From positions 1,980,001-2,012,000 of the forward strand of contig NZ_CP011391.1 of assembly GCF_001564455.1 (NCBI RefSeq): 32,000 nucleotides of DNA, in the 5' to 3' direction. This DNA is from Faecalibaculum rodentium. Lineage in GTDB: Bacteria > Bacillota_I > Bacilli_A > Erysipelotrichales > Erysipelotrichaceae. Under the pieces are notes generated by a model that did no database searches, had not been told where the DNA came from, and worked only from the letters and a program-made list of their open reading frames with translations. Of this stretch, positions 18,667 to 24,861 are shown piece by piece. Each line of letters starts with the position of its first letter. The first letter of the stretch is position 1. The position numbers were made by a program, and so were the translations under genes.

Positions 18667-18717
18667 AAAATGACGGTTCGGGCGACAGGATTCTCCTGCC
18701 GCCCGAATGGTCATTTT
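18667..18717 (-). terminator. Rho-independent terminator of the GRE operon (after the nanE-like gene)
   Basis: Minus strand: TAAAATGACCATTCGGGCGGCAGGAG-AAT-CCTGTCGCCCGAACCGTCATTTTCAGG. It starts at the stop codon. Confidence 0.75.
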
Positions 18718-19468
18718 AATGCTTTGCTCTCTCGGCGTTCCGCCAGTTGTCCTGGAGCCCTCCCATCAAGTCGGTAAACCGTTTTGCGGTCAGGTGCGGC
18801 CTGGTGATGGCACTGCCCACCACCACGGAGTGGGCCCCGAGGAACAGGCATTTCACCGCATCCTCCGGAGAATAGATGTGCCCCTCCATCATCATGTAGG
18901 CATCATCCCCGAAATCCCGGCACATTCTGGCAAATTCCCGAAGATCGGGTTCGCTGATGTCCTTCGTCTCAGCTGTATAGCCATACAGCGTCGGTGCCAC
19001 AATATCCGCACCCTTTTCCACTGCATGAGCCGCTTCCTCATAATTGGACACATCGGCAAAGAAAATCGCCTCCGGGATCTCCTTCTTTGCCTGCTCCAGC
19101 AGATCCCAGGCCACAGTGCCTTCGTGCGTGGTCTGCTTTGTGCAGTCCAGGGCAATGATTTCTGCCCCGGCATCCCAGATTGCCTTCACTTCCTCCATTG
19201 TCGGCGTAATGAACACATCGGTGTCATCATGCCAGACCTTCCAGAGGCCGATCACCGGGAGCTCCGGTACAGCTTCCTTGATGGCGCGGATCTGTTCCGG
19301 GGAATTGGTGCGGATGCCCTTCGCGCCGGCCCACCTGGCAGCCTCGGCCATTTTCACCACCATGTCATCTGTGTAAATTGGATCATCGTGCTGCACCTGA
19401 CAGGAAACAATCAGTCCGTCCTTCAGTCCATCCAGCAGTTCCCGTTTCTTTGCATCCTGCGTTTTCAT
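18716..19468 (-). CDS. nanE: N-acylmannosamine-6-phosphate 2-epimerase (NanE)-like TIM-barrel protein
   Basis: 250 aa. NanE-like blocks are GLIVSCQ, AGAKGIRTNSPEQIRAIKEAV.LPVIGL, GAEIIALDCT, PTLYGYT and GAHSVVVGSAITRPHLTAKRF. The start overlaps the DeoR stop (ATGA at 19465-19468). Confidence 0.75.
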   Translation of the reverse strand: MKTQDAKKRELLDGLKDGLIVSCQVQHDDPIYTDDMVVKMAEAARWAGAKGIRTNSPEQIRAIKEAVPELPVIGLWKVWHDDTDVFITPTMEEVKAIWDAGAEIIALDCTKQTTHEGTVAWDLLEQAKKEIPEAIFFADVSNYEEAAHAVEKGADIVAPTLYGYTAETKDISEPDLREFARMCRDFGDDAYMMMEGHIYSPEDAVKCLFLGAHSVVVGSAITRPHLTAKRFTDLMGGLQDNWRNAERAKH

Positions 19469-20205
19469 TGCTCTGTGCCGTCCCTTTCTTCCGTTTTCTC
19501 TTCCGTAATGAGTTCATCAAACGCCTCTGTATCCGCAAAGGCATACATGCCCTTCCGGTCCTCCTTGGAGCTGTCCGCCACCAGGATGGTCCGGTCGGCC
19601 CGCTTCATTGCATCCTGCTTGATCTCCGCCACAGACAGGTCATTCGCCCAGGCCTTTCCGTCGGCAATGCCGTTGGCAGAGACAAATGCCTTGTCAAACC
19701 AGAAAGAAGCGAGGATCTTCCTGGCCAGTGGTCCGGTGCTGGCCAGATACGACTTGTCAAAGTCTCCCCCCAGCAGACAGATCCGTCCGGGGAATCCATC
19801 CGGAACCTGAGCCAGCAGGTAAACATTGGGTGTCACAATCGTCACATCCCGGGATTCCAGACAAGTCATCATCGCCGCTGTTGTCGTCCCGGAATCCAGG
19901 TAGATGCAGTCACCATCCTGGACCAGTGCCGCAGCCAGCCGTGCCGCCTCTGCTTTCTCCGATACATGCATATCGGCTTTGTCCACCGTCGCCGGTTCGT
20001 ATGTCTTCGTCAGGTGATGCGCCCGGTTCTTCAGCACTGCACCGCCGCGCTGCCGCACCACAACCCCCTGCCGTTCAAGTTCATCCAGGTCCCGCATGGC
20101 GGAACTCCGGGAAACCCCGAATTCGTTCATGATCTGACGCACAGACAGGAATTCTGTTTCCTGCACGAGTGTCTTCAGTCTGTCCAGCCGCTCTGCGCTT
20201 GTCAT
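19465..20205 (-). CDS. DeoR-family transcriptional regulator
   Basis: ORF 19465..20247 trimmed to the ATG at 20205 (GGAGGA RBS 9 nt upstream). The protein starts MTSAERLDRLKTLVQETEFLSVRQIMNEFGVSRSSAMRDLDELERQGVVVRQRGGA (DeoR HTH) and continues into a DeoR-C sugar-phosphate sensor-like C-terminus. Confidence 0.85.
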   Translation of the reverse strand: MTSAERLDRLKTLVQETEFLSVRQIMNEFGVSRSSAMRDLDELERQGVVVRQRGGAVLKNRAHHLTKTYEPATVDKADMHVSEKAEAARLAAALVQDGDCIYLDSGTTTAAMMTCLESRDVTIVTPNVYLLAQVPDGFPGRICLLGGDFDKSYLASTGPLARKILASFWFDKAFVSANGIADGKAWANDLSVAEIKQDAMKRADRTILVADSSKEDRKGMYAFADTEAFDELITEEKTEERDGTEQ

Positions 20206-23683: not shown

Positions 23684-23868
23684 CCCTCTCTTTCACCCGT
23701 AGAATACCTCAGCCATTCGTCTTTATCAACCATTTTTATTCATTTATATTCATTTTTTGCCGATGGATACTACAATTACTGTTCAGAATTATTCATCGAA
23801 GAGGAATCGCCTGCGCGAAACCGGTGCGGACGCGTCCCGCTACCGGTCCGGGGACTCGTGCTGATCCG

Positions 23869-24861
23869 TTACCGGAACAGGAACCCCTCGCCGTGGGAAA
23901 TGTTCTCGATCTCATAGGGATACTTCGAGGTGTCATTGCCCAGCCCCGCAGCCCCTATGGCACCCGCCAGCTGGAAGGGAATCACGGCGGTGATCAGAGA
24001 GAAATCGTCCTCACCTGCTTCGATTTCCAGCACATGATCTGTGATCTGACGCACCAGATTCACCGTCTGCCGGTCCCGGTCCGTCTGCACGATGGCCATG
24101 AGCAGGTCATCGTCCTCAAAGGCCAGGTCCGCCAGATGACTCAGTTCCTCGGTTTCTTCCCGCATCACCGCATGCCGCAGTGTCTCCCGCATCTTCAGGG
24201 CCCCCTCCATGGCTGTGGCCCAGTGCAGACCGCTGCCGGTGACGGTGATTTTCGGCGCCCGGAGGATGTCATGCAGGTGTGCACGGACAAAGGCTTCGCT
24301 TTCCGCCACGACTTTCGGCAAGGCTGACAGTTCCTTTGTAACATCGGTGTCCAGACCCGCTGCCTGGCGGATGGCCAGGATCCACTCCAGGATCGCGGCC
24401 GTATATCCCTGGGTTTCGGGTGGAACGAGTTCCCGCTCGCAGACCAGGGGCATCCAGGCATCGCATTCCCGGACCAGCGCACTGTCTTCCTCCAGGGAAA
24501 AGGCCAGGACCGGACATCCCTGTTCCTTTGCATACCGGATGGCATTCAGGGTGGAGAGACTGTTGCCGGACTGGGAAATGCCCACGGCGAGTGTACGCGA
24601 CGGATGCAGGATGCGGCTGCCGATGAACTGCGCCGGCAGTACTGCCCTGGCCTGCATGGGCAGATGGCGTTCGGCAAGGGCTGCAGCGGCTGTACTCACA
24701 TGATGGCTGGTGCCGGATCCCAGGAGCACGATTTCTTCCATGGGATGGGTTTCGAGCATGGACTGCAGGATGGTCAGCCAGCTCTCTTTCCGGTCATACA
24801 CAGAGGACAGGATCTCAGGCTGTCGAAGAATGTAGTCATGCATGGATGGTGCTGTGGACAT
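23869..24861 (-). CDS. Double-SIS-domain sugar-phosphate isomerase/deglycase-like protein (GlmS-C / AgaS / FrlB-like)
   Basis: ORF 23869..25401 trimmed to the ATG at 24861 (AAGGAGG 8 nt upstream; MSTAPSMHDYILRQPEILSS..). SIS motifs are LLGSGTSHH and GISQSGNSLSTLNAIRYAKEQG. The upstream 180 codons of the track ORF are Arg/Pro/Gly junk. Confidence 0.8.
   Translation of the reverse strand: MSTAPSMHDYILRQPEILSSVYDRKESWLTILQSMLETHPMEEIVLLGSGTSHHVSTAAAALAERHLPMQARAVLPAQFIGSRILHPSRTLAVGISQSGNSLSTLNAIRYAKEQGCPVLAFSLEEDSALVRECDAWMPLVCERELVPPETQGYTAAILEWILAIRQAAGLDTDVTKELSALPKVVAESEAFVRAHLHDILRAPKITVTGSGLHWATAMEGALKMRETLRHAVMREETEELSHLADLAFEDDDLLMAIVQTDRDRQTVNLVRQITDHVLEIEAGEDDFSLITAVIPFQLAGAIGAAGLGNDTSKYPYEIENISHGEGFLFR

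Follow-up and report, generated by a model that had tools for sequence, protein, structure and literature searches.

What does a short, oxygen-sensitive glycyl-radical enzyme (GRE) do among genes of sugar-phosphate type? This question is raised by a locus of Faecalibaculum rodentium in a 32,000-nt stretch of NZ_CP011391.1 (the window, within which all positions are counted), where five same-direction genes on the minus strand encode a double-SIS protein, the GRE, its activase (AE), a DeoR-family regulator and a NanE-like protein, with a strong terminator at the end. GREs carry out hard anaerobic steps in the gut, such as the release of trimethylamine from choline and of H2S from sulfonates and the use of hydroxyproline, and each newly assigned GRE family has exposed an overlooked nutrient. 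An earlier reading of this DNA, here called the original prediction, had suggested that the locus may serve a radical dehydration or bond cleavage on an (amino)sugar phosphate or a sugar-derived polyol. We find that the GRE belongs to a real, widespread family without a characterised relative, and that the conserved unit is four genes, encoding the GRE, activase, DeoR and NanE-like proteins.

The enzyme family

The GRE has PFL-like and Gly_radical domains (PF01228, 99.9 bits in Pfam). Its features were read from a multiple alignment and then checked on 84 family sequences. The glycyl motif RVAGYSA, containing Gly733, was invariant (84/84), as were Cys402 and Glu404 of the Cys loop FGCGEF (Glu in 84/84). 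The predicted Cys-x-Glu signature (Cys402/Glu404) is thus present, and on the Cys loop this motif is the mark of the GRE 1,2-eliminase/isomerase class (PMC13450708). By alignment to Cys433 of glycerol dehydratase (GD), Cys402 would lie inside the ten-stranded barrel. The generic NYGR, LYNDD and DGR elements are also retained. At the start of the first barrel strand, where GD (His164), YbiW and PflD carry the general-acid His that gives a proton to the leaving oxygen, 82/84 sequences have Gly (Gly161 here), and His was seen only in two sequences, which are co-clustered PflD orthologues; Arg158, three residues before, is invariant. GD residues Ser282, Asp447 and Tyr640 become Cys/Val260, Asn416 and Asp620, so that all of the substrate-contacting GD residues compared are replaced. 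Two active-site loops, of 6 and 10 residues, are deleted, which explains the short length of the enzyme. The lack of the general-acid His suggests, from the alignment, that the leaving group is handled in another way or needs no proton.

As originally proposed, no characterised enzyme is closely related to the GRE: identity is 27% with YbiW, 26% with PflD and 25% with GD, and among these three it is 36–40%. Its best PDB sequence match was 1r8w, a GD, at 206 bits. None of the NCBIfam equivalogs was reached, every score being 4–10 times under its cut-off; for the PflD equivalog NF007437 the score was 197 against a cut-off of 1109. An AlphaFold (AF2) model made from a 73-sequence alignment had a pLDDT of 93.5 (an earlier model from a 12-sequence alignment, with a pLDDT of 57, was discarded), and in Foldseek it gave TM values of 0.83–0.86 to all eliminase/isomerase GREs, at 20–24% identity, with none of them nearest. 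PDB searches (with the single sequence and with a profile), NCBIfam and Foldseek found no close characterised relative.

An exhaustive search found about 100 full-length proteins of ~750 residues (representatives of 50%-identity clusters) that are 31–44% identical to the GRE. This clade shares R158, GCGE, NYGR and TPN and has no solved or characterised member; the gene contexts of sister-clade relatives at 39–44% identity were uninformative. A 2026 review lists all characterised eliminases and isomerases; of these, none fits the gene context described below (PMC13450708). No description of this GRE family was found in literature on glycyl radicals combined with NanE, N-acetylmannosamine-6-phosphate (ManNAc-6-P), the phosphotransferase system (PTS) or DeoR, sugar phosphates or anhydroglycolysis.

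Conserved partners of the enzyme

Relatives were sought in one genome per species and were found in 255 species. The 80 best loci, with GREs 60–88% identical to this one, came from Erysipelotrichaceae, Coriobacteriia, Lachnospiraceae, Peptacetobacter, Enterococcus, Listeria and Lacticaseibacillus; together with the window they make 81 loci (handles with L below), whose open reading frames (ORFs) were called and clustered. The GRE gene was accompanied by an adjacent activase gene in 73 loci, by DeoR in 64 and by the NanE-like gene in 58. The SIS gene was present in 2/81, namely in the window and in L001, a second Faecalibaculum species. The pairing of the GRE with SIS and NanE-like genes had been singled out by the original prediction: its NanE-like part and the DeoR gene are conserved across phyla, but SIS is confined to Faecalibaculum. 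The double-SIS protein as a part of the system was not upheld, and SIS was rejected as a conserved module partner because of its count. The GRE gene also has its own conserved promoter-like region 3′ of SIS.

The NanE-like gene was always near the GRE gene and almost always on the same strand, in an order that varies: GRE-AE-DeoR-NanE in Erysipelotrichaceae and (DeoR)-NanE-GRE-AE elsewhere. Even with a relative of only 52% identity, PTS(Man)-NanE-GRE-AE still stood together, and a search begun from the NanE-like protein recovered the same module in Faecalibacillus. NanE-like homologues were 63–95% identical to the window's protein and activases 33–50%, so the NanE-like protein is the better conserved of the two.

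At least one PTS was encoded beside the module in 18/55 loci with full flanks (mannose-type, Man, in 10 loci, fructose-type, Fru, in 10 and Glc in 6). The NanE-like gene was present in 9/9 loci with a Man-type PTS and absent from 6/8 with a Fru-type PTS. This pairing suggests an upstream role for the epimerase, in which it would fit imported epimers to the needs of the GRE. The EIIC of the fructose-type PTS shares 44% identity with FrwC. A ROK kinase gene adjoins the module in L076, GFO/IDH/MocA oxidoreductases lie beside it in several loci, and aldolases occur near it: Fsa-like in 4 loci, DeoC/LacD-like in 4 and class II in 1. A GldA orthologue (55% identical) was found in three Faecalicoccus loci.

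Individual loci add to this picture. In L027 (15369–20769) and L053 (12037–17443), genes for a PflD orthologue, its activase and an Fsa-like aldolase are convergent with the module. These PflD orthologues are 54–57% identical to E. coli PflD and 24–26% to this GRE, and the aldolase is 44–46% identical to FsaA. The cluster is followed by a second DeoR gene and a canonical NanE gene (65–67% identical to C. perfringens NanE), so NanE-type genes also accompany a known anhydro-sugar GRE. In L039 a canonical NanE stands in place of the NanE-like protein. The Thomasclavelia ramosa operon (L086) reads GRE-AE-DeoR-AraC-HAD-NanE-98aa-PTS(Man ABCD)-GFO. L056 (713–13160, Hungatella) holds two GRE-activase pairs of the family, paralogues that are 49% identical to each other's lineage; each pair is preceded by a fructose-type PTS gene, a class II aldolase gene lies between them, and NanE-like is missing. 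A protein of ~930–950 aa is encoded directly beside the NanE-like gene in L083 (9786–12575, Faecalibacillus), L038 (6254–9100) and L048 (6180–9017); the Thermophilibacter protein is 61% identical, across phyla, and that of an Erysipelotrichales metagenome-assembled genome 43%. It gave only a weak Pfam match to the GH94 superfamily and no PDB sequence match.

The NanE-like protein matched PF04131 with 158 bits and NF002231 with 240.8 against a cut-off of 189, the latter being a model of a ‘putative’ NanE subfamily and not an equivalog. It is ~39% identical to the solved NanEs of C. perfringens (4UTT/4UTW) and S. aureus (6VVA/7MFS). The S. aureus active site comprises Gln11, Arg40, Lys63, Asp124, Glu180 and Arg208, whose importance was established by mutagenesis (PMC8482478); Q24, R53, K77, D139, E195 and R223 are 100% conserved in 61 GRE-linked NanE-like sequences. 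Also kept are the phosphate-binding motif VG(S/G)AxTR and a Tyr (Y164) that in NanE touches the N-acetyl methyl group (PMC8482478). The published NanE signature, xPxIGIxK and a basic residue, is replaced by LPxIGLWKVWH (LPVIGLWKV in the window), with the Leu in 93% of sequences and Val instead of the basic residue. Tyr162, His197, Tyr199, His225 and a conserved 15-residue C-terminal extension are gained. NanA and NanK were not found in the window or the loci. Since the catalytic residues are kept and the signature and pocket altered, the protein most likely continues to enolise a sugar 6-phosphate with a carbonyl group, with a specificity that probably differs from that of NanE itself. Two other roles were considered. 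Substitution for the Fsa aldolase was weakened, because L027 and L053 have both proteins, and direct epimerisation of 1,5-anhydroglucitol-6-phosphate or 1,5-anhydromannitol-6-phosphate was rejected, as these offer no activating carbonyl (NanE mechanism, PMC8482478).

The activase scored 309.8 with TIGR02494 (cut-off 174), matched Radical_SAM, Fer4 and Fer4_12 in Pfam, and carries CPLHCPWC (CX3CX2C) and the ferredoxin-type motifs CMGCGRCVTAC and CDGCGSCVTAC. The DeoR protein consists of HTH_DeoR (PF08220, 40.3 bits) and DeoRC (PF00455, 135.8 bits) and reached no NCBIfam equivalog; AgaR was among the NCBIfam regulator families that it matched. The SIS protein has two PF01380 stretches. Its best NCBIfam families were GlmS, NagB-II, GlmD and AgaS, all far under equivalog cut-offs (the best scores being 80.5 against 381 and 62.2 against 430), and its best PDB matches were uncharacterised SIS proteins. 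It is a candidate phosphosugar isomerase/deaminase-like protein (GlmS C-terminal/NagB-II/AgaS-like), and its gene is a lineage-specific addition. Divergent from the operon lies a Cof-type HAD gene, whose product scored 130.6 with TIGR00099, slightly under the cut-off of 137, and is 28% identical to YbiV. A HAD gene adjoins the module in Faecalibaculum and was found in 10/81 loci, plus T. ramosa L086. In L086 the module's HAD phosphatase gene is split by an insertion sequence (DDE_Tnp_1; 15234–17625).

Candidate reaction and its alternatives

Several features together make it very likely that the substrate is a phosphorylated, hexose-like compound: the four conserved genes, the neighbouring PTS and kinase genes, the sensor of the DeoR regulator, an epimerase that keeps its phosphate-binding motif, and the sugar phosphatases. 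The original prediction had already named a phosphorylated sugar as a possible substrate, which the PTS genes beside the module in other genomes support. In E. coli, YbiW and PflD are C-O lyases of 1,5-anhydroglucitol-6-phosphate and 1,5-anhydromannitol-6-phosphate in ‘anhydroglycolysis’ (Ma et al. 2024, as summarised in PMC13450708). The product of the reaction is 1-deoxyfructose-6-phosphate. Because YbiW and PflD act on sugar phosphates, radical chemistry on such a compound has precedent, one that was missing from the enzymes listed in the original prediction. In general terms the core idea of that prediction is supported. Radical beta-scission is favoured here since YbiW and PflD are the only characterised GREs on PTS-derived sugar 6-phosphates and their supporting genes partly recur. 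Our preferred reading, held with slightly less than even confidence, is a catabolic module for a PTS-derived hexose-like 6-phosphate that combines radical beta-scission with an epimerase in an anhydroglycolysis-like manner. Family membership, motifs, the fold model, the conservation of neighbours and the distance from known enzymes are observed; the substrate identity, the order of epimerase and GRE and the downstream steps are proposed, as follows.

A hexose-like compound resistant to ordinary polar chemistry would enter by a PTS or a ROK kinase as its 6-phosphate. The activase would place a radical on Gly733, from where it would be relayed to Cys402. The thiyl radical would take a hydrogen off a carbinol carbon, and Glu404 would deprotonate the hydroxyl of that carbon. 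The resulting ketyl radical would then expel the beta substituent, most likely the ring-ether oxygen as in YbiW and PflD, alternatively an amine, and would do so without the general-acid His of the dehydratases, with Gly161 there and the invariant Arg158 close by. The product, a deoxy-keto sugar phosphate, would be cleaved to glyceraldehyde-3-phosphate and a C3 carbonyl, for example hydroxyacetone, by an aldolase (Fsa-like, DeoC/LacD-like or class II in some genomes, presumably encoded elsewhere in others), and GldA, where present, would reduce the C3 product. The Lys/Glu enolisation machinery of the NanE-like protein would interconvert epimers of a carbonyl-bearing intermediate. It would thus fit a mannose-type PTS sugar to the GRE pathway and be largely dispensable with a fructose-type PTS. 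In Faecalibaculum, the SIS isomerase/deaminase-like gene and the divergent HAD phosphatase gene would have been added to the four-gene module.

Several findings weigh against this reading. The GRE is equally distant from YbiW/PflD and from the choline and glycerol enzymes, and, unlike these two, it has no general-acid His. NanE-type deprotonation requires a carbonyl, and 1,5-anhydrohexitol phosphates have none, so the epimerase is unaccounted for in an anhydro-sugar pathway. The aldolase, GldA and PflD neighbours are found in few loci each (3–4), some of them in closely related genomes, and in most Erysipelotrichaceae the module is alone among unrelated housekeeping genes, for example MatE, Rho, Dxr, SpoIIE and prismane. 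The association of PTS type with the NanE-like gene (Fisher p = 7e-4) was calculated with shared ancestry ignored. Tyr164 of the NanE-like protein and the glucosamine-6-phosphate-deaminase-like SIS protein of Faecalibaculum hint at amino sugars.

The contradiction over the carbonyl keeps one rival alive, unlikely as we consider it, in which the GRE is a C-N lyase for a manno-configured 2-amino or 2-acylamino hexose-6-phosphate (mannosamine-6-phosphate, ManNAc-6-P or an N-substituted Heyns-type compound). Hydrogen abstraction at C1 or C3 would be followed by expulsion of the axial nitrogen substituent at C2, as by CutC with choline; the NanE-like protein would turn the gluco into the manno epimer, and in Faecalibaculum a related ketosamine or hexosamine phosphate would fall to the SIS protein. 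The NanE-like protein, with all NanE catalytic residues, the N-acetyl-contacting Tyr and a score above the NCBIfam NanE subfamily cut-off, argues for such a substrate, but its signature is changed (IGLWKV instead of IGIxK and a basic residue) and its pocket has new aromatic and His residues. The SIS protein, with GlmS, NagB-II, GlmD and AgaS as its best families, points the same way, but its gene is restricted to one genus. The canonical NanE that substitutes in L039, the constant company of Man-type PTS and NanE-like genes, the GH94-like (chitobiose phosphorylase superfamily) and LysM-GH18 proteins near some loci, and the match of the DeoR protein to AgaR, the repressor of N-acetylgalactosamine genes, are all consistent with amino sugars, and the absent general-acid His would suit an ammonium leaving group, as in C-N and C-S lyases (PMC13450708). 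However, NagA/NagB and deglycase routes already process such sugars without radicals, and the Fsa, GldA and PflD neighbours indicate 1-deoxy-ketose chemistry. The ‘(amino)sugar’ of the original prediction is therefore a possible substrate, but not the best-supported one.

The GRE might also be a dehydratase of hexitol phosphates (sorbitol-6-phosphate, mannitol-1-phosphate or a different alditol phosphate) that forms the phosphate of a 1-deoxy-ketose or 2-deoxy-aldose. With aldol cleavage afterwards, this would let reduced polyols be used in a redox-neutral way. PTS adjacency, including Fru/Mtl-family EIIABC, the DeoC/LacD-family and class II aldolases of some loci, a product class shared with YbiW and PflD, and the Cys-x-Glu motif typical of dehydratases (PMC13450708) would all fit. 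This is nevertheless very unlikely: 82/84 family members have Gly at the position of the His with which GD, propanediol dehydratase (PD) and HypD protonate the departing hydroxyl, GD residues S282, D447 and Y640 are all replaced, and an epimerase would be unneeded because both C2 epimers yield the same product. It is scarcely credible that the GRE is an ordinary pyruvate formate-lyase (PFL) or a glycerol, propanediol, choline or hydroxyproline enzyme with sugar-type neighbours by coincidence, despite its database name ‘pyruvate formate lyase family protein’ and its generic similarity to all eliminases; the absence of a Cys-Cys pair excludes PFL, and the low equivalog scores, the low identity to enzymes that are closer to one another, the different substrate-contacting residues and neighbours conserved across phyla oppose the rest. 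A bolder proposal, in our view also unlikely, is that the ~750-residue clade forms a mechanistically distinct class without the general-acid His, which would remove a leaving group needing no protonation (amine, phosphate or acyl) from sugar phosphates. In that case the NanE-like protein linked to the GRE would have a new activity other than ManNAc-6-P epimerisation, acting on the product or substrate of the GRE, and may be an aldolase or isomerase using the same enolate-stabilising site, or a keto-anhydro sugar epimerase. If true, gut anaerobes would possess a second radical pathway for breaking down sugars.

The family occurs in at least 255 species, belonging to Erysipelotrichaceae, Coriobacteriia, Lachnospiraceae and enterococci that are common in the gut, and it comes with a co-evolving epimerase. 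Knowing what the enzyme acts on would establish a new pathway of sugar use, explain the NanE-type enzymes beside sugar-phosphate GREs, and anchor the function of a large clade of short GREs without structure or assay.

The locus and its relation to known systems

The ORFs, Pfam and NCBIfam bore out the five-gene minus-strand run with its motifs and junctions. Only 1 nt separates the TAG of the activase gene from the ATG of the DeoR gene, and the DeoR and NanE-like genes overlap by ATGA, as judged from their coordinates (Table 1).

Table 1. Features of the GRE locus, by position in the window
Feature	Positions	Strand	Remarks
Cof-type HAD-IIB sugar-phosphatase-like gene	24993–25841	+	divergent from operon; Pfam Hydrolase_3, 129.5 bits
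Double-SIS gene	23869–24861	−	330 aa; ATG with ribosome-binding site AAAGGAGG ahead
Promoter-like region 5′ of GRE gene	23701–23754	−	two AATGAATA copies, then TTGATA, 17 nt, TATTCT (promoter scan)
GRE gene	21413–23683	−	756 aa from first ATG
Stem-loop, ~27 bp	21353–21414	−	begins in GRE stop codon; without U tract
Three direct copies of a 41-nt G+C-rich unit	21207–21381	.	inside GRE-activase spacer; repeat search
Activase gene	20207–21124	−	GRE-activating radical-SAM enzyme
DeoR gene	19465–20205	−	DeoR-family regulator
NanE-like gene	18716–19468	−	sugar-6-phosphate epimerase-like, GRE-linked subfamily
Intrinsic terminator of operon	18677–18707	−	14-bp stem, 9 GC pairs, then T run

Some details of the original prediction were corrected. 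The terminator is present, but at 18677–18707 and not at 18667–18717; the GRE-activase spacer is 288 nt as predicted, but the SIS-GRE spacer is 185 nt and not 184. The 756-aa ORF of the GRE stands, but translation probably starts at the second ATG (23677), giving 754 aa, because the homologues have 754 aa, including one from F. rodentium that is 99% identical. A terminator scan of the coding strand found no T-tailed terminator in either the SIS-GRE or the GRE-activase spacer. In the former, the AATGAATA copies lie at 23754–23747 and 23744–23737, 10 nt apart; the GRE-proximal ~100 nt of the spacer is kept in the sister-species locus L001, while the distal part is not. The promoter-like region is thus a candidate internal promoter and operator for the GRE gene, judged by its sequence. 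In the GRE-activase spacer, RNA folding gave a minimum free energy of −118.8 kcal/mol (z = −3.0), and the stem-loop after the GRE gene may stabilise the mRNA or act as an attenuator between this gene and that of the activase. The 41-nt repeats in this spacer have spacings of 60 and 74 nt, with the core GGCATCCTGCCCGCCG present twice exactly; a pattern search gave 5 matches against 0.57 expected. They are species-specific, being missing from the 119-nt GRE-activase spacer of L001. Rfam found no riboswitch or leader in the operon, and the predicted absence of a transporter or kinase from the 32-kb window was confirmed.

The remainder of the window encodes GH32 enzymes, a class I ribonucleotide reductase, peptidases and a nitrilase-type hydrolase. 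A direct repeat of ~210 nt (16850–17059 and 18426–18636; 153 nt at 92% and 55 nt at 71%) stands on either side of the gene at 17112–18407, a putative regulator with Schlafen AlbA_2 and HATPase_c_4 domains. This gene looks to have been inserted between the ribonucleotide-reductase and GRE operons, with duplication of the downstream region. Each repeat copy adjoins a hairpin (17031–17079; 18565–18584 paired with 18688–18707). Mobile-element remnants occupy 3270–4765 on the minus strand: group II intron D1-D4 RNA (RF02001, 89.7 bits, 4594–4765), a truncated reverse-transcriptase ORF (3801–4361) and a HipA_C fragment (3270–3662). Two large GH32 (fructan hydrolase-type) proteins are encoded on the same strand at 1–3091 and 5778–8435, one of them with FIVAR and 3-keto-disaccharide-hydrolase-like domains and continuing beyond the window edge. 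Two neighbouring Peptidase_C69 genes lie at 29372–31936 (minus strand); the second product, of 309 aa, matches only profile positions 172–400 and so may be truncated or continue past a frameshift. Two plus-strand ORFs, of 917 aa (8874–11627) and 246 aa (4835–5575), had no Pfam match and are putative genes.

Among the closest known systems are the E. coli loci ybiV-ybiW-ybiY-fsaA and gldA-fsaB-ptsA-frwCB-pflDC. The GRE has the Cys-x-Glu loop and the activase type of YbiW and PflD, and a fructose-type PTS, a Cof-type HAD, an Fsa aldolase and GldA recur at some module loci; the window itself holds only the HAD of this set (PTS, Fsa, GldA, HAD), in a position beside the GRE operon analogous to that of ybiV beside ybiW. 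The differences are that the GRE is 26–27% identical to YbiW and PflD, below the level of orthology, has Gly161 for their His, two loop deletions and FGCGEF for their IGC(I/V)E, and that, unlike in the E. coli loci, its core partners are a NanE-like epimerase and a DeoR regulator. GD and the other 1,2-eliminases (PD, HypD, CutC, IslA/IseG, HpsG, HpfG) gave its best matches, with TM 0.85 to 1r8w, and share the RVAGYS glycyl loop, the Cys-x-Glu loop and an activase with two extra clusters. However, the GRE is 20–25% identical to them and 30–90 residues shorter, and its context is one of sugar phosphates and not of microcompartments, amines or sulfonates. The NanE-like protein resembles NanE in its TIM barrel and six active-site residues (Gln, Arg, Lys, Asp, Glu, Arg), but is ~39% identical to canonical NanEs as against 64–95% inside the GRE-linked group, and it stands without NanA or NanK nearby.

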